Below are positions 581 through 13,083 of a stretch of DNA of 13,309 nt, piece by piece. The notes under the pieces are model-generated. The model had not been told where the DNA came from. It was given only the letters and a program-made list of their open reading frames with translations, and did no database searches. The stretch's first letter is position 1; each line of letters starts with the position of its first letter. This DNA is from a virus. Made by a program: the position numbers and the translations under genes. Where the stretch lies: the UHGV virus genome UHGV-0315017; one strand, written 5' to 3'.

Positions 581-603
581 TTTATAAGCTATCAGCCGGA
601 TTT

Positions 604-660
604 TTTAGTTATACGTTTAGTTATACGGGCTGGCGTATAACTAAAGCCGTATAACTAAAA
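604..660. repeat. Arm-type repeat cluster: two direct copies of TTAGTTATACG followed by two inverted copies CGTATAACTAA (candidate integrase arm sites)
   Basis: TTAGTTATACGTTTAGTTATACGG gctgg CGTATAACTAAAGCCGTATAACTAA read directly; the direct-copy half recurs at 11928-11952. Confidence 0.55.
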
Positions 661-690
661 CCCTGTTTTTTCGTGTGGAATCATAGACAT

Positions 691-1932
691 ATGGCGAGAA
701 AAACACACCCATTAACCACAGTGCAGATCAAAGCAGCCAGACCAGCGCAAAAGGAGTACACCCTGCAGGACGGCGGAGGGCTTTTTCTCCTGGTCAAACC
801 GTCTGGATCAAAACTCTGGAGATTTTCCTACTACCGACCATCGGACAAAAAAAGAATATTGCTGAGTTTTGGATCGCTTGAAGATGTTTCCCTGGCTGAT
901 GCCAGAAAACGCCGTAGCGAGTACAGGACGTTAATCAGTGCCGGAACTGACCCGCAGGACCACGAGAGGCAAAAAAGAGAGACAGAGGCCCGAAGACAAG
1001 GGAACACGTTCGAAAATGTGGCGGCGGCATGGTACCAGGTGAAAATCAGCCAGAATCTGGCCCCCAACACGATTAAAGACATCTGGCGTTCGCTGGATAA
1101 ATATGTATTCCCGTTCATCGGCAACACGCCAATAGATACCCTCACCGCCCGAAGGTTCGTTGAAGTGCTTACCCCCATCAAGGAGCGCGGCAACCTGGAA
1201 ACACTCAAGCGGGTTTTACAGCGCGTTAATGAGGTAATGGATTACGCCGCCAACAGTGGGCTGATTGATGCCAATCCGGCTATGAATGTGCGTAAGGCGT
1301 TTCCCTCACCTGTAAAAAAACATATGCCAACAATCCGCCCCGAACAGCTGCCGGAGCTTATGCAGGCTTTATCAGTATCGGCAACAGAACGGCAGACCAG
1401 ATTACTGATTGAATGGCAGTTACTGACCGTAACCCGTCCCGCCGAAGCGTCATCAACGCGGTGGGATGAAATCAACCTGGACGCGAAGCAATGGACGATA
1501 CCTGCCGGACGCATGAAGATGCGCAGGGATCACGTTATCCCGCTTTCCGGTCAGGCTATGGCGGTGCTGGAGGCCATGAAACCAATCAGCCACCACCGCA
1601 ATTACGTTTTCCCAAGTCTGAAAGACCCACAGCAGCCGATGAACAGCCAGACAGCTAACGCAGCATTGCGGCGTATGGGATTCGCTGGCGTGCTGGTGTC
1701 TCATGGATTACGCGCCATATTCAGCACAGCAGCGAACGAGGAAGGATTCGAGCCGGACGTAATAGAGGCGGCACTTGCCCACGTCGACACCAACGAAGTT
1801 AGACGGGCATACAACCGGAGCAACTACATAGAAAAACGCATCGTGCTGATGCGCTGGTGGGGCGAATTTGTCGAGGCTGCGGCGACGGGCGTAACCCTCG
1901 CCAGTGGTAAAAGGGGTATCCGAGCCGTGTAG
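691..1932 (+). CDS. int: Tyrosine recombinase / integrase, P4 type
   Basis: N-terminal region (LTTVQIKAARP...YTLQDGGGLFLLVKPSGSKLWRFSYY) typical of P4-family integrases; C-terminal catalytic region with HGLR and terminal Tyr motifs (VSHGLRAIFSTAA...AYNRSNY). ATG at 691 preferred over GTG at 673 from the ORF track. Confidence 0.9.
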   Translation: MARKTHPLTTVQIKAARPAQKEYTLQDGGGLFLLVKPSGSKLWRFSYYRPSDKKRILLSFGSLEDVSLADARKRRSEYRTLISAGTDPQDHERQKRETEARRQGNTFENVAAAWYQVKISQNLAPNTIKDIWRSLDKYVFPFIGNTPIDTLTARRFVEVLTPIKERGNLETLKRVLQRVNEVMDYAANSGLIDANPAMNVRKAFPSPVKKHMPTIRPEQLPELMQALSVSATERQTRLLIEWQLLTVTRPAEASSTRWDEINLDAKQWTIPAGRMKMRRDHVIPLSGQAMAVLEAMKPISHHRNYVFPSLKDPQQPMNSQTANAALRRMGFAGVLVSHGLRAIFSTAANEEGFEPDVIEAALAHVDTNEVRRAYNRSNYIEKRIVLMRWWGEFVEAAATGVTLASGKRGIRAV

Positions 1933-2009
1933 CTGTACAGAAAACCAGTAAAAACTACGAAAACCATGTAAAACCGTCGTATAATTGCATCAAATTTAAC
2001 GACAAGGCC

Positions 2010-2261
2010 GTGAAACATGAAACCGTTAAGATGCAAAAAAATATCAGATGCAATTGCGACGGGCTGCAACTGGCCCTGATGGTTCAGCATGAATTTTGGT
2101 CAACCTACGATCCGGAGGACAGGACGACGGCCCCATCAAAAAAACAGGTAGTAGATTTTCTGGTATCCCGTGGCGCTTCCAGAAATCTGGCGGTAAGTAT
2201 TGATAAGGTCGTACGTCCGGCATCTATGAAGATCGGAGGCAGGCCCAAAAAATGGCGGTAA
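2010..2261 (+). CDS. Hypothetical small protein (83 aa); weak call
   Basis: ORF without a convincing Shine-Dalgarno sequence; followed closely by a strong terminator; could instead be a non-coding leader. Confidence 0.3.
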   Translation: MKHETVKMQKNIRCNCDGLQLALMVQHEFWSTYDPEDRTTAPSKKQVVDFLVSRGASRNLAVSIDKVVRPASMKIGGRPKKWR

Positions 2262-2272
2262 CAATCCTGGAA

Positions 2273-2295
2273 GCGGCAGAAATGCCGCTTTTTTT
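2273..2295 (+). terminator. Rho-independent terminator
   Basis: GCGGCAGAAATGCCGC hairpin followed by TTTTTTT. Confidence 0.7.
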
Positions 2296-2393
2296 ATAAT
2301 TCCATTTCAAATCATCAATATAAAAAACGGTGTATACCGTTTAAAAACGGTGGGAACTGTTTTTACCCATATCCGATGATTTACCGTATTTGT

Positions 2394-2410
2394 CACCGGA
2401 ATACACCGGA
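2394..2410 (+). promoter_or_regulatory. Paired direct repeat CACCGGA-N3-CACCGGA just upstream of the AlpA-like gene
   Basis: GTCACCGGAATACACCGGATT 19-35 nt upstream of the ATG at 2429; same motif pair as near attL. Confidence 0.35.
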
Positions 2411-2428
2411 TTCACAAGGTAAATCACG

Positions 2429-2635
2429 ATGGAAGCAATCAGAAAAATTATCTTTCGCCAGGAAGTAAAAAAAATTATCCACATCAAGGCAGACAGCACG
2501 CTGCAAAGCATGATCAACGCCGGAGAATTTCCGCAGGGTTTTCGCGTTGGTTTACGCCGTCGCGGATGGTATGAGGATGATGTGTTGGCCTGGCAGAAAG
2601 AACGCGAACAGGAAGCACGCGGAACGGCTGCTTAA
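2429..2635 (+). CDS. alpA: AlpA-family (prophage regulatory / excisionase-like) helix-turn-helix protein
   Basis: 68 aa; spacing of conserved residues (STL..I..G.FP....LG.R..GW.E.DV..W) matches the AlpA/Xis-like family as recalled; position after int is typical for P4-like and PICI elements. Confidence 0.75.
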   Translation: MEAIRKIIFRQEVKKIIHIKADSTLQSMINAGEFPQGFRVGLRRRGWYEDDVLAWQKEREQEARGTAA

Positions 2636-2660
2636 CGGGTATCACAGATATGACAAACAC

Positions 2661-2688
2661 GAAAAAAGCGGCCCCGATATGGAGCCGC
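2661..2688 (-). terminator. Probable terminator for the leftward RHH operon
   Basis: GCGGC / GCCGC stem with 11-nt loop; on the minus strand it is followed by a T6 run (plus-strand CGAAAAAA at 2661-2667). Confidence 0.45.
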
Positions 2689-2783
2689 CTTTCTGAACAA
2701 TTAACCCGCTGCGCCTTATGTGTATGTGATCCCAAACATAAGCACGGGGATGATAGCCGCTATCAGGCTGGTGGGCAATGCAA

Positions 2784-2972
2784 TCAGTCTGGTTCAGTTC
2801 GTTGCCATACCTGCAATGAGCGCTTTTCCCTATACTCTTTAAGGAATTGCTCAAGGGCAAAAGCACATGGCGCGAATCTTTCTGATTCATGCTCTATCTT
2901 TCTGCGCCGTCTTTTCCGTGCCGGTGATAATGTTTTGGTCAATTCTTTATCAGTCATTGTGTTGTCCTGCAT
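2784..2972 (-). CDS. Hypothetical basic small protein, downstream partner of the RHH gene (alternative start at 2957 has a better SD)
   Basis: 62-aa ORF with KRRRRK basic patch; ATG at 2957 is preceded by AGGAC; convergent with alpA and ends before the terminator at 2661-2688. Confidence 0.4.
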   Translation of the reverse strand: MQDNTMTDKELTKTLSPARKRRRRKIEHESERFAPCAFALEQFLKEYREKRSLQVWQRTEPD

Positions 2973-3014
2973 AGCAATGCGCCGTAATACCTCACACCAC
3001 GGCGCTGATAGTGA

Positions 3015-3194
3015 TTATTCTGATTCTTTGGCCTTGCGGCGCTGGCGGCGTTTGATCTCGCCTTCAAGTGCCGAAACGATAAATTGCCCTGTACTTTCGC
3101 CATCTTCCTTTAAATTTTCTACAGCATCAGCTATTGCGTGAGGTACTCGAGCCTCAAGCTTTTTGGATTTTGCATTAACTGCTTTTGTTGCCAT
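3015..3194 (-). CDS. Ribbon-helix-helix (CopG/Arc-like) DNA-binding protein, candidate island repressor
   Basis: Internal start MATKAVNAKSKKLEARVPHAIADAVENLKEDGESTGQFIVSALEGEI: basic beta-strand then two helices; GAGGAA SD 7 nt upstream of the ATG at 3194. The ORF-track 5' extension to 3323 is rejected. Confidence 0.65.
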   Translation of the reverse strand: MATKAVNAKSKKLEARVPHAIADAVENLKEDGESTGQFIVSALEGEIKRRQRRKAKESE

Positions 3195-3363
3195 ATCTGA
3201 TTTCCTCGTTATTAGGTGGCTGACAGTATACACACAAGAAAACGGAAAAACACTATTGACGTGGCTGACACCTTTATCAAGGTAATCGATGAAAAGACAA
3301 AGCCCCGCAAGTGTCGTTACCACTCGCAGGGCTTCTAACCAACAACGTAAACTAGGAGCCGTT
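3195..3363. promoter_or_regulatory. Divergent promoter region with direct repeats GTGGCTGACA (3215-3224 and 3260-3269)
   Basis: One repeat overlaps a rightward TTGACG -35-like hexamer, the other lies beside a leftward TATACT -10-like hexamer. Confidence 0.5.
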
Positions 3364-3561
3364 ATGGTTGCTGTAAATCATATACCACACCTTGTACACA
3401 CACAAACGGCCTTTGTGTGGCGTTTTCTGGCACTGAGTGCCGGAGAATCTCAAATCATCCACGTAACCGCCTGGACGGAACGCGAAGCGCGTGGCCGTTG
3501 CCCGTCCGGTTGTGTTGCAGTATTCGCCGCCCGTATTCGTCAGGGGTCACATCATGCGTAA
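3364..3561 (+). CDS. Hypothetical small protein, paralog A (65 aa)
   Basis: AGGAG SD 7 nt upstream; shares FVWRF...TEREAR...ARIRQG motifs with the product of 3848-4015. Confidence 0.5.
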   Translation: MVAVNHIPHLVHTQTAFVWRFLALSAGESQIIHVTAWTEREARGRCPSGCVAVFAARIRQGSHHA

Positions 3562-3639
3562 AAACCGCTTGCAAAAAATTATAACGGGGCTGTATGCTTC
3601 CCCCGTCGCCCACATGGCGACCGGGTTTAGCAGCCTGAA

Positions 3640-3683
3640 TACTGTAGCGGACAGCCGCTTATATTCCGATATGCGGTTTTTTT
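3640..3683 (+). terminator. Hairpin plus T-run between the two paralog genes
   Basis: AGCGGACAGCCGCT and CCGC..ATAT/ATATGCGG stems followed by TTTTTTT (3677-3683). Confidence 0.4.
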
Positions 3684-3847
3684 GTGTCCGTAAGCCTACC
3701 CATACCCGCATTATGGCGGGGCGTAACGGGGGAGCCTTTGCGCTCGCTGGTTCCTACAGTGCCAGTCTGCTAACCCTGTTACGTCTCGCCACCCCGTTTA
3801 GCAGCGTAGTAGCGAGACTCCTTAAAATTACTGTAGGAGCCTTTCAC

Positions 3848-4015
3848 ATGGCTGTATCCGCACGCCCTTACTTTGTCTGGCGCTTTATGCAGTGCCAGGA
3901 AAAACAAACATCACTCTTTACCGTCACGGCAGCAACAGAACGCGAAGCCCGCGCCCAGCTGCCGCACGCACATCTGATTTTTGTCGCCCGTATTCGTCAG
4001 GGGGTAGGCTTATGA
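3848..4015 (+). CDS. Hypothetical small protein, paralog B (55 aa)
   Basis: AGGAGCC SD 9 nt upstream of ATG 3848; C-terminal 46 aa align with paralog A. The 174-aa ORF-track call from 3491 is rejected. Confidence 0.5.
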   Translation: MAVSARPYFVWRFMQCQEKQTSLFTVTAATEREARAQLPHAHLIFVARIRQGVGL

Positions 4016-4242
4016 GCCAGGAAATCACACTACAACAGGCAGCAGAACGCGCCCACCAAATCGAAGTTATTTGCGCACTGGCAGAGGATTACCCTGGCAT
4101 GATGACCGACAGCGAATCAGGGGCAATCATCGGCTTACTTAAACGCCTTAGCGGTGAGGTCTGCGTATTCCTGATCGATGAACAGGAAAGAAGAACGCTT
4201 ATTTCTAACGAAAAAAAATGCGGAGGGGTACATGTGCAATAA
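4012..4242 (+). CDS. Hypothetical protein (76 aa), translationally coupled to paralog B (ATGA overlap)
   Basis: Internal Met of ORF 3892-4242 with start overlapping the upstream stop; no recognisable motif. Confidence 0.45.
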   Translation: MSQEITLQQAAERAHQIEVICALAEDYPGMMTDSESGAIIGLLKRLSGEVCVFLIDEQERRTLISNEKKCGGVHVQ

Positions 4243-4462
4243 AACCACACCGGACGCAGCAGAAGAAGCAATGCAAATACTGATACGTGCGCTCGTTGAT
4301 GTTACCCACATGGTGGAGATTATGGAGAGAAAATCACAGTCGGAGCACGACAAAAGAAAACTTAAAACAATAAAAATAATTGCCAAAAACTCGCTGATAA
4401 AAGTTACAGACATCCTTAATGAGGACATTAAAAGAATAAGGGAGAAAATTTGTGATGCATAA
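4232..4462 (+). CDS. Hypothetical protein (76 aa) in AT-rich segment
   Basis: GGAGGGG SD 5-6 nt before ATG 4232; Lys/Ile/Glu-rich, predicted helical; composition visibly more AT-rich than flanks. Confidence 0.5.
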   Translation: MCNKTTPDAAEEAMQILIRALVDVTHMVEIMERKSQSEHDKRKLKTIKIIAKNSLIKVTDILNEDIKRIREKICDA

Positions 4463-4682
4463 AATCGATTTTGAAGTATTAATCCACTCTGAAAACGCAT
4501 TAATTAAAGCACGCGAAATGAATGCGTTGTTAATTAAATTAATTGAAGTGCCGGAAGGTGGCGAAGATCATTCATCATTAATGTTTGCCGCTGTTCAGAC
4601 ATTATTGACACCTGTTATTGATGAACTCAATAAGGCTATGGCAATTCACGAGAATAATAAAGCGCCCCACACCGGAGAATAA
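4455..4682 (+). CDS. Hypothetical protein (75 aa) in AT-rich segment, overlaps the previous gene
   Basis: GGAGAA SD 8 nt before ATG 4455; start overlaps the stop of 4232-4462. Confidence 0.5.
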   Translation: MHKIDFEVLIHSENALIKAREMNALLIKLIEVPEGGEDHSSLMFAAVQTLLTPVIDELNKAMAIHENNKAPHTGE

Positions 4683-4687
4683 AAATA

Positions 4688-4987
4688 ATGAAACTTAAAT
4701 ATTCTGGCTTAACTGCCAGTGGCAAAACTCGCACTAAATTCATGCGCGGTGATATTTACCGCGACCAGTACGGCGGCACGGTAATGATTAAGGGCGTGGA
4801 GGAACGGCGCATCACCTACCGTCGTGAAGGCTACGAATATGATTGCGTGATGCCTGTTTATCAGTTTCGGCGTGATTTTTCTCTGGTACAGGCAGCGCCC
4901 CGCAGTAAACCAACCAGCAGGGAGAAAGCACGCGCCAATATTCAGGAAATAAAAAAGATGCTTAACGTATTCAGGGGTAAAAAATGA
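4688..4987 (+). CDS. Hypothetical protein (99 aa) immediately upstream of and coupled to the primase gene
   Basis: GGAGAA SD; stop overlaps the primase start (ATGA at 4984-4987). Confidence 0.55.
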   Translation: MKLKYSGLTASGKTRTKFMRGDIYRDQYGGTVMIKGVEERRITYRREGYEYDCVMPVYQFRRDFSLVQAAPRSKPTSREKARANIQEIKKMLNVFRGKK

Positions 4988-6732
4988 AACTGGCACCGAA
5001 CGTAAAAAAACAACCACGCGGAATAAAACACAAAGACACAGAGGTAATTATTTTCGCGGGTAGTGATGCGTGGGCACATGCAAAACAGTGGCAGGAGCAG
5101 GACGGCCCCGCATCCGGCGATAATGTGCCGCCTGTGTGGCTTGGGCCAAATCAGCTTGCCGAACTTGATGCACTGAAAATTGTTCCGGATGGAAAAAAAC
5201 GCGTAAGGCTGTACCAGGCCGGAGAACTGGATTTGGTGGAGACCAAAAAGATTGGTCAGAAGCTGGCGGCGGCAGATATTCAGGACGCAAATTTTTACCA
5301 CGAAGGAATGCACGTCCAGAAGTGTGAAAACTGGCGGCGCTATCTGAATGCTGAGCGTGAAAATATTGCCGCAGGGCTTACCATGCCGGAGCAGAAAAAT
5401 ACGCAACTGGCACAAATGGCAGACAGTGAGCGCGCGCAGCTGCTTGCCGAGCGCTTTGATGGCGTTTGTGTGCATCAGGAAAGTGAAATCGTTCACGTAT
5501 GGCGCGGCGGGGTATGGTGTCCGGTCAGCACAATGGAACTTAGCCGCGAAATGGTGGCGATCTATTCAGAGCACAGGGCCACTTTCAGCAAGCGCGTAAT
5601 CAATAACGCCGTGGAAGCGTTAAAAGTTATTGCCGAACCAATGGGCGAGCCGTCCGGCGATTTGCTGCCGTTCGCCAATGGTGCGCTTGACCTGAAAACG
5701 GGGGAATTTTCCCCGCACACGCCGGAGAACTGGATCACCACGCACAACGGCATTGAGTACACGCCACCAGCACCTGGGGAGAACATCCGCGATAACGCGC
5801 CAAACTTTCATAAATGGCTTAAGCACGCAGCCGGAAAAGACCCGCGCAAGATGATGCGTATATGTGCCGCGCTGTACATGATTATGGCGAACCGGTACGA
5901 CTGGCAGATGTTTATTGAGGCCACCGGAGACGGCGGGAGCGGTAAAAGTACATTCACGCACATAGCCAGCCTTCTGGCAGGGAAACAGAACACGGTAAGC
6001 GCTGAAATGACATCGCTTGATGATGCTGGTGGACGTGCGCAGGTTGTCGGGAGTCGTCTTATCGTCCTGGCTGACCAGCCGAAATATACAGGCGAAGGAA
6101 CGGGCATCAAGAAAATCACGGGCGGTGACCCCGTGGAAATTAACCCGAAATACGAAAAGCGTTTCACGGCTGTAATCAGGGCGGTGGTGCTGGCGACCAA
6201 CAATAACCCGATGATATTCACCGAACGGGCCGGAGGTGTGGCACGTCGTCGCGTGATTTTCCGTTTCGACAATATCGTCAGTGAGGCCGAAAAAGACAGG
6301 GAGCTACCGGAAAAGATCGCGGCTGAAATCCCTGTCATTATCCGCCGATTGCTGGCGAACTTTACCGACCCTGAGAAGGCACGGGCTTTACTACTGGAAC
6401 AGCGTGACGGTGATGAAGCTCTGGCAATAAAGCAACAGACGGATCCGGTTATTGAGTTTTGCCAGTTCCTGAATTTTCTGGAGGAAGCACGCGGCCTGAT
6501 GATGGGCGGCGGTGGCGATTCAGTGAAGTACACGACCAGGAACAGCCTTTACCGCGTCTATCTGGCGTTTATGGCATACGCAGGCAGGAGCAAACCGCTA
6601 AACGTAAATGACTTTGGCAAGGCTATGAAGCCTGCCGCAAAAGTTTACGGACATGAATATATTACGCGGAAAGTTAAGGGGGTAACGCAGACTAACGCAA
6701 TAACAACAGACGAGTGCGACGCGTTTTTATAA
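4984..6732 (+). CDS. Replication initiator: primase / SF3 (D5-like) helicase, P4 alpha-like C-terminal region
   Basis: 582 aa with Walker A GDGGSGKST and downstream helicase-like motifs; size and position match the pri-rep genes of P4-like and PICI elements. Confidence 0.85.
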   Translation: MKLAPNVKKQPRGIKHKDTEVIIFAGSDAWAHAKQWQEQDGPASGDNVPPVWLGPNQLAELDALKIVPDGKKRVRLYQAGELDLVETKKIGQKLAAADIQDANFYHEGMHVQKCENWRRYLNAERENIAAGLTMPEQKNTQLAQMADSERAQLLAERFDGVCVHQESEIVHVWRGGVWCPVSTMELSREMVAIYSEHRATFSKRVINNAVEALKVIAEPMGEPSGDLLPFANGALDLKTGEFSPHTPENWITTHNGIEYTPPAPGENIRDNAPNFHKWLKHAAGKDPRKMMRICAALYMIMANRYDWQMFIEATGDGGSGKSTFTHIASLLAGKQNTVSAEMTSLDDAGGRAQVVGSRLIVLADQPKYTGEGTGIKKITGGDPVEINPKYEKRFTAVIRAVVLATNNNPMIFTERAGGVARRRVIFRFDNIVSEAEKDRELPEKIAAEIPVIIRRLLANFTDPEKARALLLEQRDGDEALAIKQQTDPVIEFCQFLNFLEEARGLMMGGGGDSVKYTTRNSLYRVYLAFMAYAGRSKPLNVNDFGKAMKPAAKVYGHEYITRKVKGVTQTNAITTDECDAFL

Positions 6733-6744
6733 TTTTTTGTAATT

Positions 6745-6972
6745 GCTGTCTACCCTGTCTACCCGAGTAAAGAAAAATACATTTAATTCAGTGCATTAAG
6801 TTAGGTAGATGGCCTTTTTTTACTGTCTACCCACTATCTACCCTCTCTACCTGATTTTACCTGAATCAGACAGGGAGGTAGACACGGGGTAGATACTGGA
6901 TAAAAGCACTCTACCCCGCTGAAAGCCGCGCCATTACTGGTATGAGGGCCACTAAGGTAGATAAGGTAGACA
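6745..6972. repeat. Iteron array (candidate replication origin): about 12 copies of TCTACC(C) / GGTAGA(C/T) in both orientations
   Basis: CTGTCTACCCTGTCTACCC, GGTAGATGG, CTGTCTACCCACTATCTACCCTCTCTACC, GAGGTAGACACGGGGTAGAT, CTCTACCCC, AAGGTAGATAAGGTAGAC; non-coding and immediately downstream of the primase-helicase gene. Confidence 0.65.
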
Positions 6973-7020
6973 AGGGGAGGCACAACTCAAAACTTTTTAA
7001 ACGAGGGGGTAAAAATAAAT

Positions 7021-7299
7021 ATGCACACTTCAGGGAAATTTAATAAATCACTCAAAAAACGCAGAGACAGAACAGAACCGAAATATCGCGCGTTAGACAT
7101 TACAGAGCACGCTTTAAAGGTGGCAATCAGAACGATAGACCGCCACGCGGGGGAAGGATACGCGAAAGCACATCCCGAACTGATAAGCGCATTCATGACC
7201 ACGACGGCGGCAAATTTTGCCACGCTGACAGAGCGGGAGATTGCCGAAGCGGAACAGGTAACAACCATCAACGTTAAAACCGGAGAGGTGGAATCATGA
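7021..7299 (+). CDS. Hypothetical protein (92 aa)
   Basis: GAGGGGG upstream of ATG; coupled to the ssb start (ATGA at 7296-7299). Confidence 0.55.
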   Translation: MHTSGKFNKSLKKRRDRTEPKYRALDITEHALKVAIRTIDRHAGEGYAKAHPELISAFMTTTAANFATLTEREIAEAEQVTTINVKTGEVES

Positions 7300-7706
7300 C
7301 AGCACAGATAGCCGCTTACGGGCGGCTAGTGGACGACCCGCAGGTAAAACAGACCAGCAAGGGCACACCGATGACGCTGGCGCGTATGGCGGTATCGTTG
7401 CCATGTAGTCAGGCGCAGGATGGGCAGGCGACGTTATGGCTATCGGTCATCGCATTTGGTAAGCAGGCCGACTTCCTGGCTAAACATCAAAAAGGCGACG
7501 TTGCCAGCGTATCCGGCACGATGCAGGTCAGCCAGTGGACCGGACAGAACGGGGAAACGCGGCAGGGTTATCAGGTTATTGCAGACAGCGTAATCAGTGC
7601 CCGTGCGGCACGTCCTGGCGGGAACAGACGCAAAACCACAGGCACACAGGGTAATCAGCCACCAGCGGGAGACGATGACCCCTACGGTGATGATATTCCG
7701 TTCTGA
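7296..7706 (+). CDS. ssb: Single-stranded DNA-binding protein (compact, 136 aa)
   Basis: OB-fold-like N-terminal region, Gly/Gln/Pro-rich linker and acidic C-terminal tail DDDPYGDDIPF matching the conserved SSB tail (...DDDIPF). Confidence 0.85.
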   Translation: MTAQIAAYGRLVDDPQVKQTSKGTPMTLARMAVSLPCSQAQDGQATLWLSVIAFGKQADFLAKHQKGDVASVSGTMQVSQWTGQNGETRQGYQVIADSVISARAARPGGNRRKTTGTQGNQPPAGDDDPYGDDIPF

Positions 7707-7714
7707 ACGCACAG

Positions 7715-7736
7715 GCCGGAGAAAATCCGGCTTTTT
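7715..7736 (+). terminator. Rho-independent terminator after ssb
   Basis: GCCGGA gaaaa TCCGGC hairpin plus TTTTT. Confidence 0.75.
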
Positions 7737-7742
7737 GTATCC

Positions 7743-7786
7743 AAAAAAAGCCCGATAAGTACAGGAGGAAGCTTATCGGGCTTTTG
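7743..7786. terminator. Second hairpin terminator (bidirectional: A-run upstream, T-run downstream)
   Basis: GCCCGATAAG ... CTTATCGGGC 10-bp stem, 12-nt loop, then TTTT. Confidence 0.6.
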
Positions 7787-7858
7787 CTTACGAGGTTAAC
7801 AGCATGGTGACTACTGTTGCCGTAAATCATTTCATAATTTGCAACGTAACTCAATTTC

Positions 7859-7908
7859 ATTGCGCAAAATGCAATCCTGATTATAATCAGGACTGGATGA
7901 ACATCCAG
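7859..7908 (+). promoter_or_regulatory. Candidate capsid-operon promoter (TTGCGC - 16 bp - TATAAT) embedded in an 18-bp perfect palindrome, followed by a second palindrome
   Basis: TCCTGATTATAATCAGGA (7875-7892) contains a consensus -10 hexamer; CTGGATGAACATCCAG (7893-7908) follows directly; about 35 nt upstream of the ATG at 7944. Confidence 0.5.
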
Positions 7909-7943
7909 TTATGATTTTTTAAGTCAAAGAGGAATTTCTTACT

Positions 7944-9206
7944 ATGGCTGAAGAGAAAAAAGGCGGTGTTTCGGTGTACATAAGCCCCGACATCGTGAAG
8001 GCGCTCAAGGAACGCCACCAGCAGAACGTAAAAGCAGGCATTGCGGCAGGACTTGACCCGCTGGCGATGGTTGAGCCGTCAACAGGCTGGCAGGTACGCG
8101 CCTATTTACGCGCGGCGCTGGGTATGAATCAGGTTCACGGGGGGGGAATAATGACAGTAAAAGCAATGGCACTTAACACTAACCAGCTTTTTGCGTACCT
8201 GAATCGCGAGGATATTGCGGAATTTAAATTCAGTCCGCTGTTTACCACGCTGTTTTTCCCGAACGTGGCGACATTCAGCACGCAAAACATCATGCTGGAT
8301 ACCCTGGACATTGAAGAAGTCACCATGTCGGCGTTTTGTTCGCCTATGGTGGGTAGCCAGGTTCAGCGCGATAAAGGGTACGAAACCAGCACAATCAAAC
8401 CTGGCTACATGAAGCCAAAGCACGAAATCGATCCAACGAAAACCATCATGCGCATGGCTGGAGAAGATCCGGCACAGCTTAACGACCCTACCTATCGCCG
8501 TATGCGCCTGATTACTGGCAATATGCGCCGCCAGATAAACGCCATAAAAGCGCGCGTGGAATGGCTGGCGGTAAATGCGGTAACGACCGGAAAAAACATC
8601 ATTGAGGGCGAAGGCATAGAGCGCTATGAAATCGACTGGAAGATACCGGAAAAAAACATCATAGAGCAGGCCGACGGTAAAAAATGGTCAGAGCAGGACA
8701 AAGAAATCCACGATCCAATCTATGATATCGAACTATACGCCGATCAGGCAGGTTGCCCCGCCAACGTCATGATTATGGGCGCTGAGGTATGGCGAACGTT
8801 ACGCAGCTTTAAAAAATTCCGTGAGCTGTACGATCTTTCCCGTGGTTCAGAGTCCGCCGCAGAGCTGGCATGTAAAAACCTGGGCGAAGTGGTGAGCTTT
8901 AAAGGCTATCTGGGCGATATTGCCCTTATCGTCTATTCCGGCAAATACGCCGACAGTGACGGCAGAGAAAAATATTTCCTTGAGCCTGATTTGCTTGTCC
9001 TGGGCAACACCAACAATAAAGGGCTGGTGGCCTATGGTGCGATTATGGATCAGGACGCAGTAAGAACGGGGGCAACGCAAAACATGTACTACCCGAAAAA
9101 CTGGATTGAGGACGGAGATCCGGCGATTGAGTACGTGCAGACACACAGTGCACCGCAGCCGGTACCGGCAGTTATTCGCAAATTTGTTACCGTCAAAATT
9201 GGTTAA
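7944..9206 (+). CDS. Major capsid protein, lambda gpE-like, with about 70-aa N-terminal extension
   Basis: Long blocks shared with lambda gpE as recalled: KFSPLF..LFF, PGYMKPKHE, EDPAQLNDPTYRRMR, SFKGYLGDIALIVYSGKY, LVLGNT, YPKNW..GDPA. AGAGGA SD before ATG 7944. Confidence 0.88.
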   Translation: MAEEKKGGVSVYISPDIVKALKERHQQNVKAGIAAGLDPLAMVEPSTGWQVRAYLRAALGMNQVHGGGIMTVKAMALNTNQLFAYLNREDIAEFKFSPLFTTLFFPNVATFSTQNIMLDTLDIEEVTMSAFCSPMVGSQVQRDKGYETSTIKPGYMKPKHEIDPTKTIMRMAGEDPAQLNDPTYRRMRLITGNMRRQINAIKARVEWLAVNAVTTGKNIIEGEGIERYEIDWKIPEKNIIEQADGKKWSEQDKEIHDPIYDIELYADQAGCPANVMIMGAEVWRTLRSFKKFRELYDLSRGSESAAELACKNLGEVVSFKGYLGDIALIVYSGKYADSDGREKYFLEPDLLVLGNTNNKGLVAYGAIMDQDAVRTGATQNMYYPKNWIEDGDPAIEYVQTHSAPQPVPAVIRKFVTVKIG

Positions 9207-9217
9207 CGGGGGATTCT

Positions 9218-9553
9218 ATGGACACTCCATACATTGAGTTATTTGCAGGCAGTCAGCAGGTCGCCACGACGCTGGTACATTTTGCCGCTGATGCTGGCTT
9301 TATTCAGGAATTTACCCCGCTGATGCTGGCGGACAATGGCGAGTTTAAGCCGTGGGATGGTAAGGAATCTGGCAAGGCTGTTTATCTGACCTCGTACCCT
9401 GTGGACACGTCAAAGCAGAAATCAGCACAGTGTTACAAGACGGGGATATTCAATATTGCCGCCGTTAACTGGCCTGAGAGCGTCGACACCGATGCGAAAA
9501 AATGCGCCGCCTTTGCGGGTTCCGGCGTATCCGTTCAGCCGCTGGCCCGATAA
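9218..9553 (+). CDS. Head decoration protein, lambda gpD-like
   Basis: 111 aa; TPLML, WDG, YKTGIF, WPE and KK.AAFAG blocks match lambda gpD (110 aa) as recalled; GGGGG SD. Confidence 0.85.
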   Translation: MDTPYIELFAGSQQVATTLVHFAADAGFIQEFTPLMLADNGEFKPWDGKESGKAVYLTSYPVDTSKQKSAQCYKTGIFNIAAVNWPESVDTDAKKCAAFAGSGVSVQPLAR

Positions 9554-9565
9554 GCAGGGGGAACG

Positions 9566-9979
9566 ATGGCAACGAATGAAAGCATCATGACGCTACCGCT
9601 GGCGAGTAAATTTAAAGCCGAAGCGCGGGCAATGGCTGACAGAGGTTTATCAACCTATGAGGCCGTATATCAACTAAACAAACTGGAAGAGCAGGACAAG
9701 CCGCGCGCTGATGCGATTATGGCGCTTCATGAGCATAAAGACTATCAGCCGCTGTTGCGTGCAATGGCAAACGTGCCTTGTATCGATGTTGGTACGGCTA
9801 AAAGCATCCTTAGCATGACCATAGAGCAGGAACGCCAGAAGGTTGCACCAGAGCTTACCGCAGCCTTTGAAAACTTTATGGACATGCACAGCCCGCAAGC
9901 CGTATCAGCTGGCATGGCATACGATGGCAGAAACCAGGGCGATGACGGCGACATCGATCGCATACTGAAAACCATCTGA
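9566..9979 (+). CDS. Hypothetical protein (137 aa) between the decoration gene and cos
   Basis: AGGGGGA SD; acidic C-terminus (QGDDGDIDRILKTI); no family recognised. Confidence 0.6.
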   Translation: MATNESIMTLPLASKFKAEARAMADRGLSTYEAVYQLNKLEEQDKPRADAIMALHEHKDYQPLLRAMANVPCIDVGTAKSILSMTIEQERQKVAPELTAAFENFMDMHSPQAVSAGMAYDGRNQGDDGDIDRILKTI

Positions 9980-9985
9980 GACAAG

Positions 9986-10009
9986 GCCGGAGAAATCCGG
10001 CTTTTTTTT
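9986..10009 (+). terminator. Rho-independent terminator (near-duplicate of the 7715-7736 hairpin)
   Basis: GCCGGA gaaa TCCGGC plus TTTTTTTT. Confidence 0.8.
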
Positions 10010-10010
10010 A

Positions 10011-10086
10011 CGGGTCCTTTCCGGCATATGGACCCGTTACGGGGCGGCGACCTCGCGGTTTTTCGCTATTTATGAGCTTTTTCAGG
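10011..10086 (+). other. Lambda-type cos site X (cosQ-like, cosN, I2-like); cohesive-end 12-mer at 10042-10053
   Basis: ACGGGTCCTTTCCGG...CCGTTACG|GGGCGGCGACCT|CGCGGTTTTTCGCTATTTATGA closely matches the lambda right-end/left-end junction as recalled (…CGGGTCCTTTCCGGTGATCCGACAGGTTACG | GGGCGGCGACCTCGCGGGTTTTCGCTATTTATGAAA). Confidence 0.8.
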
Positions 10087-10186
10087 GGGGTGGTGGTGGT
10101 TTTGTTGTTTGCTCTATCTTTATGAATGAAAAGGGAAAGATGCAAACAATACACCAACCTGAAGCAGTAATTAAGTTGGTGTATTA

Positions 10187-10729
10187 ATGAAATCGCACCT
10201 GATGAACAAAAAAAACATGGCGAAAAGCTGCCGTGTAAGTGCGACAGCGTTCGACAAGTGGGGAGTGACTCCCGTTGAACGTAAAGGCCGTGAGGCGTTT
10301 TACGATGTTGCCAGCGTGATAGACAATAGGGTTAACAATGCAATTAGCCAGCTTACAAACGACAAAGGCGATATTGATGATGATGAACTCTTACGAGTCA
10401 GGATCAGATTACTGACAGCACAGGCGGAGGCGCAGGAACTTAAAAACGAGCGCGATCGCGGTGACGTGATTGATACTGAGTTTTGCCTGTACGCGCTTTC
10501 AAAGCTGGCGAGTCAGATTTCATCAATCATGGACAGCCTCCCGCTTACTATGCAAAGGAGCTTCCCACAGATTACCCCCGCCATGCTGGATAGGCTTAAA
10601 AGGGAAGTGGTTAAAGCCTGTAATGCCAGTGCCAGAGTTGCCGACAACCTCCCACAGATACTGGCTGATTACTTGAAAGAAACAACCGGAAACGTACCGG
10701 AAAAGTTGCTACAGAAGAAAGGCGAGTAA
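10187..10729 (+). CDS. Terminase small subunit, lambda Nu1-like
   Basis: 180 aa (Nu1 is 181); N-terminal HTH region and central block LTAQAEAQELKNERDRGDVIDTEFCLYALSKLASQISSIMDSLPLTMQRSFP align with lambda Nu1 (LTRAQADAQELKNARDSAEVVETAFCTFVLSRIAGEIASILDGLPLSVQRRFP) as recalled. Confidence 0.85.
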   Translation: MKSHLMNKKNMAKSCRVSATAFDKWGVTPVERKGREAFYDVASVIDNRVNNAISQLTNDKGDIDDDELLRVRIRLLTAQAEAQELKNERDRGDVIDTEFCLYALSKLASQISSIMDSLPLTMQRSFPQITPAMLDRLKREVVKACNASARVADNLPQILADYLKETTGNVPEKLLQKKGE

Positions 10730-10753
10730 CAGACGCGCAATTATTGAACAAAA

Positions 10754-10868
10754 CTGAGAAACGACATGAAAGCGTCATAAATCGCCATTTTAGATGATTA
10801 CCGTGTCGTTTCTTTTTATTGTGTATCTATTTAAAAACAAATAGTTATGTTCGAGAAGTACCGACATG
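10754..10868 (-). promoter_or_regulatory. cosB-like region belonging to cos site Y: R1-like (10754-10768), R2-like (10801-10817), IHF/I1-like AT tract (10821-10844), R3-like (10852-10868)
   Basis: Read on the minus strand from cosN-Y the order is R3-like, I1-like, R2-like, R1-like, as in lambda cosB; cores GTCGTTTCT resemble lambda R sites but differ in their 3' halves. Confidence 0.6.
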
Positions 10869-10874
10869 CTTTTT

Positions 10875-10952
10875 CCAGAAAAATTTTCATAAACAGATAA
10901 AAACCGCGAGGTCGCCGCCCCGTAACGGGCCATAATTCCAGGAAGGACCCGA
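10875..10952 (-). other. Lambda-type cos site Y in inverted orientation; cohesive-end 12-mer at 10909-10920 (minus strand)
   Basis: Reverse complement reads CGGGTCCTTCCTGGAATTATGGCCCGTTACGGGGCGGCGACCTCGCGGTTTTTATCTGTTTATGAAAATTTTTCTGG, about 75 bp near-identical to site X and forming an inverted repeat with it. Confidence 0.8.
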
Positions 10953-10984
10953 CGACACCAGACTATCAGAGCGATGGGGGCACA

Positions 10985-11167
10985 ATGACAGAAGCCGAAA
11001 TACTGGGATTAATCCGCCGTGATGGTATCCAGCTTAATGGCGTGGATATGCGCAACATACGAACCAGAGTTCTTGAGTTGCTGGCCTACCGTCGCCGCGT
11101 TGAGATGTATCGGGAGAAGGAAAAAATTACGTACCACTGGAAGAAGCCGGAGCGGTTGCGGCGGTAA
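10985..11167 (+). CDS. Hypothetical small basic protein (60 aa)
   Basis: GGGGG SD 5 nt before the ATG; Arg-rich; no family recognised. Confidence 0.4.
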   Translation: MTEAEILGLIRRDGIQLNGVDMRNIRTRVLELLAYRRRVEMYREKEKITYHWKKPERLRR

Positions 11168-11231
11168 CTGGTTGATATTTTCGGAAACCTCAATTTGAGG
11201 AGGCCGGAAGCGTCACCCTTTAGATTCTGAA

Positions 11232-11246
11232 TGGTGATAATCACCA
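11232..11246. repeat. 15-bp palindrome TGGTGATAATCACCA (copy 1 of 3)
   Basis: Perfect palindrome; flanked CTGAA...CGCC. Confidence 0.6.
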
Positions 11247-11255
11247 CGCCCAATC

Positions 11256-11290
11256 GTGACGGAGAGTGACAGCCAGTGACACGCCGTGAC
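11256..11290 (+). repeat. Four direct GTGAC repeats at exact 10-bp spacing
   Basis: GTGACggaga GTGACagcca GTGACacgcc GTGAC; one helical turn per repeat. Confidence 0.5.
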
Positions 11291-11399
11291 AAAAGACGGT
11301 TTAACCGTTAATTAAAAATCGACGGGATTTTGTGTTTTCCGGACGACGTGGCCAACGTCATTTTTTAGCGAAAAATTCTGATTAAGGTCATTGTCTGAA

Positions 11400-11414
11400 T
11401 GGTCATAATGACCA
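11400..11414. repeat. 15-bp palindrome TGGTCATAATGACCA (copy 2 of 3)
   Basis: Perfect palindrome, preceded by CTGAA like copy 1. Confidence 0.6.
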
Positions 11415-11494
11415 CGCAGACCATCAAGGCAACCATAACGATTTTCGTTACGGTTGATGTGTGCCTTCGTCCGGCATTCGGACGATATAAGGGA

Positions 11495-11509
11495 TGGTCA
11501 TAATGACCA
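11495..11509. repeat. 15-bp palindrome TGGTCATAATGACCA (copy 3 of 3)
   Basis: Identical to copy 2. Confidence 0.6.
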
Positions 11510-11657
11510 CTCCTACAGAACAGGTAAAACCCACCAGCCTGATTAACAGTTAACCGGAAAAAAATCCGGCATGGGGGGGGAGTGGTTAGCCACGAACAAC
11601 GAATAAGCTGGACACCGCGCCCCCTCTCACGCAGAGAAAAAATTACCGTTTCGTAGT

Positions 11658-11790
11658 AGTTAACATGTTAACTGCCTGATGAAGCGTTGTTGTTGATTTT
11701 GTCTTTATGATTCATCTGGTTGCGAGCAAAAAATGTTAACTACCTTTTTGGTAAAAATGTTAACAGGGCAGAGGTTAACATTAACCTGGC
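11658..11790. repeat. Cluster of GTTAAC-containing motifs including the 16-bp palindrome AGTTAACATGTTAACT
   Basis: AGTTAACATGTTAACT, AATGTTAACTACC, AATGTTAACAGGG, GGTTAACATTAACC read directly in non-coding DNA. Confidence 0.4.
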
Positions 11791-11796
11791 GTAAAT

Positions 11797-11822
11797 CCCG
11801 ATATGGTGATCACCATATCGGG
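11797..11822. repeat. 26-bp perfect palindrome CCCGATATGGTGATCACCATATCGGG
   Basis: Read directly; equals its own reverse complement. Confidence 0.6.
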
Positions 11823-11927
11823 GAACATCCACCAGCTTAAAAACGAATGAGCGAAAAAAAATCCAGGTAGAATCATGGAAGTCGCTAGGGCAATCGCCGT
11901 TTAAATTGTGCATTTTTTCAGCAAATT

Positions 11928-11952
11928 ATTTTAGTTATACGTTTGGTTATAC
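11928..11952 (+). repeat. Arm-type direct repeat TTTTAGTTATACGTTTGGTTATACGG, partner of 604-628
   Basis: 24 of 25 positions identical to the left-end copy. Confidence 0.55.
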
Positions 11953-12003
11953 GGTTTAAAAGTTGAATCAATAATATTTATTAAAATCATGCGGTTACAC
12001 GCT

Positions 12004-12129: not shown

Positions 12130-13083
12130 TCAGAACGTCCAGACTACACCCGCCTGAGTTGTGCTGCTTTCTTCACGGGAGAAACGACTATCGATACCGA
12201 GCGTCAGCCCCGTCAATGTTTGCTCAAAGCCAGCGCCTGCATCAGTGGTCACGTCGTTGCGGCTGTTAATTGCCGAACTCCACATCGCCGTATCGTAATT
12301 AACGCCTTTTACGCTACCAAGACGCCCACGCACGGTGTCCAGTTCTGCATCAAATACCAGCGGTTGTGCTGCCGCCATATTCAGCACATCCGTGGTTGAA
12401 GGGGTCATTTGTGCGCGATTCTCTGCGAGACTCCAGCTATGGTTGCCATTATCCAGCAAGGTATATTCATACGTACTGATATCAACAACGCTTCCGGCAT
12501 TGCCCAACGTAAATGCAGCATCACCGCCGCCCGTTGTTACCAGTGTAAGGCTATCTCCTGCTGCCGGGCTGGCACCGGTGTCCGTCACGAATATTTTGAA
12601 ATCACCTGTTGCTTTAACCTCCAGTAGTCCTCCCTTTTCTATAACGGCAAAGACGGCAATCCCATCTTTTTCAACAATTAAGCGCCCGCCTTTAATCGTG
12701 GGATCATTCGCCGCGCCATAAACCTGTAGCACTCCATTATTGATCGTAGTCTGATTTACCGCGCCACCCATTTGAACAATTTGATAACCATCATTTAATA
12801 CTGCGTATTCTGCGGTGCCATTTATTTCAACGTACTGATATCCCCCGTTAATTTCAGTATTACTACTTACACCAAATTCTTATATATGCTGTTCTCCGCC
12901 AGGATTGATTTTCGTATTATTGGCGGTCCAATAAACCAGCTGGATATCTTTTTCCAGGACAACACCATCAACTGGCTCACCATACTCAACAGTTGATGCC
13001 AATGCTATGGGCGAATATAACGCTGTAGCCACCAGAACAGATATTGCGGAACGACAAAGAGAAACAGAACCAGATTGGTGCAT
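12130..13083 (-). pseudogene. Autotransporter/adhesin-like gene interrupted by an in-frame TAA (12880-12882); possibly a yejO-type locus
   Basis: ORFs 12880-13083 (signal-peptide-like N-terminus) and 12130-12771 (Gly/Thr-rich beta-helix-like repeats ending ...VVWTF) are in the same frame, separated by a single TAA. The total length is too short for a complete autotransporter. Confidence 0.5.

Follow-up and report, generated by a model that had tools for sequence, protein, structure and literature searches.

A Nu1-family small terminase encoded without a large subunit beside lambda-type cos sites in a TerS-encoding PICI, and its probable pairing with a helper large terminase

The window analysed here, a 13,309 nt stretch of the virus genome UHGV-0315017, contains an island of 11.36 kb (592-11954) lying between att repeats at the tRNA-Pro/yejM-yejO site. 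Repeat analysis placed its borders at two direct repeats, attL (592-628, +, with the core TTTTAGTTATACGTTTAGTTATACGG) and attR (11918-11954, +), with a tRNA-Pro(ggg) gene at 406-482 just before attL. The repeat core, TTTTAGTTATACGTTT(A/G)GTTATACGG, matches the one that Table S1 of PMC6092414 gives for the yejM-luxR att site, which is listed there for EcCIATCC25922, EcCIED1a.1 and others. Reading from left to right, the island carries a tyrosine integrase gene (673-1932, +; Phage_integrase and Arm-DNA-bind_3, PHROG 1), a gene for an AlpA-like HTH regulator/excisionase (2429-2635, +; PHROG 66, E 5.5e-7), whose Pfam AlpA match falls below the cut-off and whose RefSeq relatives are annotated as HTH regulators, a DUF4222 gene (4688-4987) upstream of the primase, and the primase/helicase gene itself (4984-6732, +; D5_N, DUF5906 and Pox_D5, by Pfam and PHROG). 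An SSB gene lies between the primase and capsid genes. The genes that follow encode homologues of a lambda gpE-like major capsid protein (8151-9206, +; Phage_cap_E, E 8e-50) and a lambda gpD-like head decoration protein (9218-9553, +; HDPD, E 1e-16), then a 137-aa protein (9566-9979, +; PHROG 1999), for which a weak match covers the C-terminal portion of the head maturation protease family. A terminator-like hairpin (9983-10004) after this last gene stands just before cos1 (10011-10082, +). Beyond it lie terS (10187-10729, +), an inverted repeat with 19-nt arms and a 37-nt loop followed by a T run (10748-10822, +), possibly a terminator downstream of terS, and cos2 (10880-10951, -).

Several further features of the island and its flank were apparent. 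The capsid gene is joined in frame with an upstream 68-aa ORF to give a 420-aa ORF (7944-9206). The fusion arises at a run of eight G at 8140-8150, one base longer than the GGGGGTG of EcCIATCC25922 (L004), and relatives have two separate genes overlapping at TAATG; either a sequencing error in the homopolymer or a genuine frameshift may be responsible. The terminator-like hairpin sequence AGGCCGGAGAAA(A)TCCGGCTTTTT occurs twice, at 7713-7739 after the SSB gene and at 9984-10010. A C4 antisense RNA was detected at 3709-3796 (+; Rfam RF01695, 71.5 bits against a cut-off of 45) where relatives have annotated Icd-like genes, and the region recalls the c4-icd-ant immunity arrangement of P1/P7. Near attR, a palindromic 24-nt element with the core ATGGTSATAATSACCAC is present three times (11226-11249, 11394-11417 and 11489-11512), and these copies may be protein-binding sites. 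Beyond the right border, yejO (12130-13083, -) is apparently a remnant: only fragments of 213 and 67 aa are left, and internal stretches of the 2.6-kb NCTC9112 gene are missing. The ATCC 25922 annotation lists yejO as a pseudogene.

The 180-aa product of terS, as translated in the ORF listing of the window, was assigned to the Nu1 family of small terminase subunits by Pfam, PHROG, tblastn and alignments. Residues 33-148 match Pfam Phage_Nu1 (PF07471) with 83 bits and E 2.3e-23, above the curated cut-off of 30 bits, and residues 1-174 match PHROG 57, 'terminase small subunit' (E 3e-53). Among 50,697 phage records searched by tblastn, the best match was N15 gp1, with 46 % identity over approximately 90 % of the length. 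Pseudomonas lambda-like phages displayed approximately 39-42 % identity and lambda Nu1 36 % over approximately 90 % of the length (36-38 % overall), and none of these records contained a match of 60 % identity or more. NCBIfam contained no model matching TerS, and the protein gave no confirmed locus when GTDB species-representative genomes were scanned. In a multiple alignment with lambda Nu1 and N15 gp1, homology ran from the N-terminal HTH to the last lambda residues and included the blocks LTAQAEAQELKNERD (lambda LTRAQADAQELKNARD), FCLYALS (lambda FCTFVLS) and SLPLTMQRSFP (lambda GLPLSVQRRFP). Seven positions in residues 1-50 were invariant across the three proteins (W25, P29, V30, G34, E36, D40 and V44). 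The preliminary description had proposed precisely this, a Nu1-like small terminase aligned along its full length, and both the profile and the BLAST comparisons with Nu1 families agree with it, down to the blocks that it quoted.

Structural searches were less direct. The single TerS sequence matched no terminase in the PDB, and lambda TerS was reached only with a profile of the island family from which lambda had been left out. The top match of this profile was 6HN7_B (E 0.006), the lambda TerS chain of the RppC-TerS crystal, and the gpNu1 DNA-binding domain entries 1J9I and 7LW0 were also matched at E about 0.8; RppC chains were absent from the matches. From these sequence and profile comparisons, the N-terminal winged-HTH domain of TerS is judged homologous to the solved gpNu1 domain. 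AlphaFold2, run on a 28-sequence alignment, gave a model of low confidence (pLDDT 60, pTM 0.29).

A large terminase was found neither in nor beside the island. Searching the whole window by tblastn with lambda gpA and N15 gp2 gave a best E of about 0.9, the only ORFs longer than 241 aa in the window are those of the integrase, primase and capsid protein, and the flanks in annotated relatives are chromosomal, comprising tRNA-Pro/yejM at one border and yejO/narP at the opposite border. Together these results support the earlier statement that no gpA-like large subunit is encoded in the element, and the chromosomal flanks exclude one lying just outside. Portal, TerL, tail and lysis genes were likewise absent from the island by Pfam and tblastn. 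The phage operon order is present in part, in that cosN, cosB and terS follow one another and the gpA gene expected after terS is missing; such a neighbour is a trait of the phage operon and not a criterion of the Nu1 protein family.

With its 11.36 kb length, att repeats at a PICI att site and lack of TerL, portal, tail and lysis genes, the island displays the traits of a classical PICI, and it is a classical Gram-negative PICI of the TerS-encoding type. It also contains, in order, the complete set of integrase, AlpA-type regulator, primase-replicase, capsid-like gene and small terminase by which SatelliteFinder defines PICIs (2023, PMC10085698), and is a 'Type A PICI' in that scheme, in which 97 % of elements with all five components were found in E. 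coli (PMC10085698). Moreover, EcCIIHE3034 and EcCIATCC25922 encode exactly the same TerS (WP_000835278.1, 100 % identity). These two islands are catalogued by Fillol-Salom et al. 2018 (PMC6092414, Table S1), EcCIATCC25922 at the att site of the window, and share the order int, alpA, primase, SSB, capsid, decoration, 137-aa gene, cos1, terS, cos2. That paper noted a terS homologue in some Gram-negative PICIs and stated that the IHE3034 and 18098 islands 'encode TerS', with transfer after mitomycin C of <1 to 110 transductants/ml (PMC6092414). A lone Nu1 homologue beside a duplicated cos had been put forward as a possible third, new arrangement; since the identical protein, the same layout and the Type A class are already documented (PMC6092414, PMC10085698), this suggestion of novelty does not hold. 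That satellites carry a small terminase alone was already known as a strategy, and our data leave that picture unchanged. What the present analysis adds is the relation to the rppA cassette, a predicted cosB with its likeness to N15, the analysis of selection and figures for prevalence. At the nucleotide level, the island is a mosaic relative to EcCIATCC25922, with segments of 83-99 % identity and gaps in the regulatory region, and no complete E. coli genome covered more than 87 % of the window. The literature located on the named islands comprised the 2018 catalogue and the cf-PICI paper only, and literature searches on TerS-type islands yielded neither an identified helper nor a mechanism.

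The lambda cohesive-end sequence GGGCGGCGACCT occurs exactly, and only twice, in the window, at 10042 (+) and 10909 (-). Each copy lies in one arm of a 72-nt inverted repeat on either side of terS (10011-10082 and 10880-10951, with 82 % complementarity). The duplication of cos noted previously is real, although the copies are inverted and not direct. In cos1, the cosQ-containing segment ACGGGTCCTTTCCGG is identical to lambda and is followed by cosN at 10042-10053. To the right of cosN, 22 bp match lambda with one mismatch before the sequences diverge, and terS begins 145 bp from the start of cosN. The inverted copy, cos2, has its cosN at 10909-10920 and retains to the left of cosN, as does cos1, the cosQ segment known from the right end of lambda, without the GGT/GTT element described below. 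cos2 is missing from the related island of strain 100248 (L013), and in EcCICFT073 the essential site is reported to be cos1 and not cos2 (PMC6739421).

Within the divergent segment, the sequence GGTGGTGGTGGTTTTGTTGTTTG at 10089-10111 (+) occupies bp 48-70 from the cohesive end, the position of R3 in both lambda and N15 (PMC9026076), and is similar to the R3 of N15 (GAGGTTGTTGTTT). Its (GGT)n-TTTTGTTGTTTG element was retained in every TerS-type island examined, including those of Enterobacter and Citrobacter, where TerS is only 57-59 % identical and the surrounding DNA is different. On this pattern of position and conservation, the element is probably the TerS binding site, equivalent to R3. 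A possible second R-like site, GGTTGGTGTATTGTTTG, lies inverted within the predicted cosB at 10143-10159 (-). It agrees with the R3-like core at 13 of 17 positions, and no other second candidate in the window scores better; the match is weak and only partly conserved in relatives, and is no more than suggestive of a second site. A search for an IHF consensus in the cosB interval separating the R-like sites was negative.

As the preliminary description proposed, and in a way compatible with all our observations, we consider it probable that TerS recruits a gpA-type large terminase of the helper and thereby directs packaging from the island's own cos. The five steps that we infer would run as follows. 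Induction of the island by a lambda-like helper would lead to production of TerS, whose N-terminal winged-HTH would bind the island cosB, probably at the (GGT)n-TTTTGTTGTTTG element some 48-70 bp to the right of cosN in cos1. The C-terminal region of TerS would then recruit the helper gpA-type large terminase, which would nick the lambda-identical cosN of the island, and island concatemers would be packaged into helper-derived particles. Support for this reading comes from the lambda-identical cosQ and cosN, a divergent yet family-conserved cosB upstream of terS, the full-length Nu1 architecture and purifying selection on the gene. In particular, the elements read by the large subunit, cosQ and cosN, have been kept, whereas cosB, which is read by the small subunit, has been replaced and is co-conserved with TerS. 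Against it stand the divergence of the C-terminal region (25-32 % identity to lambda and N15), the low transfer published for TerS-type islands, and the finding that no sigma-70-like or otherwise recognisable promoter lies between the 9983-10004 terminator and terS.

The cos sequences also bear on a second explanation, in which TerS would be an interference decoy that mainly titrates the helper large terminase or binds the helper cos unproductively, lowering helper yield. TerS would then be dispensable for island packaging, which could use cosN and cosQ alone. We regard this as improbable. The explanation draws on EcCICFT073 cos plasmids without a matching cosB, which were still moved by lambda and phi80 at reduced frequency (PMC6739421), from which it follows that a lambda-type cosQ-cosN alone gives some packaging. 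However, the cosB element lies directly upstream of terS and is conserved in distant relatives, as would be expected of a cognate pair of protein and site.

Comparison of terS alleles provided a measure of selection. The most informative pair, the window and strain 100248 (dS 0.47), gave a dN/dS of 0.16 overall and of 0.11, 0.17 and 0.14 for residues 1-55, 56-140 and 141-180, respectively. Purifying selection thus acts on each of the three parts, the presumed TerL-binding tail among them. This is difficult to reconcile with terS being an inactive remnant of a degraded prophage packaging module, as are dN/dS values of 0.13-0.23, the intact state of the ORF in hundreds of genomes and the finding that all examined relatives of at least 57 % identity sit in satellite-type modules and not in degraded prophage packaging modules. 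Little or no transfer of TerS-type islands in one published test is what such a remnant would predict, but we judge it very unlikely. The conserved site and the purifying selection together make both the remnant and the decoy the less likely explanations.

The three regions of TerS differ in their relationship to phage proteins. Over the first 50 residues, identity is 58 % with N15 and 36 % with lambda, and the residues AFDKWG, aligned to the lambda recognition helix, are common to N15 gp1. The central residues 101-140 are the best conserved with respect to lambda, at 45 % identity. The C-terminal region can be aligned up to the last residues of lambda Nu1, with the low identity given above, whereas lambda and N15 are 81 % identical to each other there. 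Within the satellite TerS family, as compared with P0058 and the Enterobacter and Citrobacter proteins, conservation is highest in the N-terminal domain and lowest in the last 40 residues, which is the reverse of the pattern between lambda and N15. In the TerS family (P0001-P0120), the proteins of E. coli islands fell into two or more C-terminal allele types, ...KACNASARVADNLPQILADYL...PEKLLQKKGE and ...RACNACTKLDENIPRMLSDYL...PDKFQPDKDK, in addition to mosaics or recombinants. This diversity would fit adaptation to different helper large subunits, though it is no proof of it. No phage in the collection carried a TerS C-terminus close to that of the island, the best being PhiR5_1 with 52 % over 40 aa, and a helper could not be named from these C-terminal matches.

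An experimental point of reference is EcCICFT073, whose gene order equals that of the window island and whose rppA gene (c1503) is its proven packaging-redirection gene (PMC6739421). Rpp is the only experimentally explained route by which E. coli PICIs capture lambda-type packaging, and EcCICFT073 was mobilised, unlike the TerS-type IHE3034 and 18098 islands with their poor or absent transfer. The two sequences are homologous at 95.6 % through the capsid module and cos1 as far as 10083, approximately 30 bp after the cos1 cosN, and homology resumes at 10874, approximately 35 bp before the cos2 cosN. Between these points the window carries its cosB and terS, and EcCICFT073 a different cosB and rppA, encoding 144 aa. 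terS and rppA are alternative cassettes in one slot. Descent of TerS from an Rpp protein by divergence was considered and rejected (BLASTP against RppA E 1.4, hhalign probability 0.1 %), and RppA displayed no match to PF07471. The two proteins have the same presumed purpose, the redirection of lambda-type packaging to the island cosB. RppA differs in its length, in lacking a TerL-binding tail and in needing the helper TerS. Rpp proteins (144-153 aa, as against 180 aa for TerS) lack the C-terminal length argued by Murialdo and Feiss to be necessary to bind TerL (PMC9026076), whereas the C-terminus of TerS aligns with that of lambda Nu1.

This shared slot, between the same inverted cos sites, raises the alternative that TerS acts as Rpp does, by heterodimerising with the helper small subunit (PMC6739421). 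Instead of replacing that subunit, TerS would then form mixed dimers or oligomers with it through an N-terminal dimer interface and a central self-association region, the complex would be retargeted to the island cosB with helper TerS still required, and phage packaging would be blocked. In its favour, the central residues 101-140 are the part best conserved with lambda. We consider this mode unlikely, if less so than the decoy or the remnant, given that TerS has neither detectable sequence nor profile similarity to RppA and that its C-terminus, which is under selection and corresponds in the alignment to the part of Nu1 that binds TerL, would be superfluous in a pure TerS-binder. Direct recruitment of the helper large subunit by TerS remains the reading that we favour.

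A broader proposal, which we advance tentatively and hold a little less likely to be right than wrong, is that terS and rpp are interchangeable specificity cassettes, each with its own cosB, placed between two inverted cosQ-cosN copies in a single family of E. coli islands, and that the TerS version is the commoner, would free the island from the helper small subunit and would use an N15-like (GGT)n-GTTGTT R3. If so, a helper deleted for terS could still mobilise the island, and the (GGT)n of the R3 element would be the reverse complement of an Rpp-type (ACC)3. By megablast with coverage of at least 80 % of the query, the terS cassette was present in 595 of 5426 complete E. coli genomes (approximately 11 %), with a 100 % match in Nissle 1917, and the RppA cassette, under an equal test in which RppB- and RppC-type cassettes may be under-counted, in 53 of the 5426 (approximately 1 %). 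Separately, the Rpp-type cosB of EcCICFT073 was seen to contain (ACC)3 at bp 55-63 (L005:10613-10623), and the (GGT)3-4 of the TerS-type cosB, its reverse complement, lies a few bp to the left of that position, at 10089-10099. The correspondence could be due to chance, shared ancestry or related recognition.

Among other systems, lambda gpNu1 and N15 gp1 have in common with island TerS their family, a three-part layout and a gene position just right of cosN-cosB. The island cosN is identical to that of lambda, whilst the putative R3 and the residues aligned to the recognition helix resemble N15. Compared with lambda, TerS has a shorter wing, no GGGKG loop and no adjacent gpA gene; it also displays an 11-residue deletion after the N-terminal domain, as does N15, and a 12-residue C-terminal extension. 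The small terminase of SaPIs belongs to a different small-terminase family. As described in PMC6739421 and PMC6092414, this protein (TerS-S of pac-type SaPIs) is likewise supplied by the satellite without a large subunit and directs preferential SaPI packaging. It serves headful pac packaging, not cos, and works with a separate inhibitor, Ppi. Capsid-forming PICIs such as EcCIEDL933 have related int, alpA and replication modules and a satellite lifestyle, and additionally encode TerL, HNH, portal, protease and connectors, none of which are present in the window island.

The Enterobacter and Citrobacter relatives, with TerS of 57-59 % identity, lie within a lambda-like prophage, where the entire satellite interrupts the major capsid gene E (L015:1469-12803; L007-L012), an insertion that receives no mention in a report on Enterobacter satellites. 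The order there is gpC, gpD, a 91-aa 5' fragment of E, the satellite, a 254-aa 3' fragment of E, FI, FII and tail genes, with the satellite itself running from int to capE, HDPD, TerS and an accessory gene. Joined together, the 91-aa and 254-aa fragments make up a full-length gpE, with the junction at a conserved PGYVKPKH motif.
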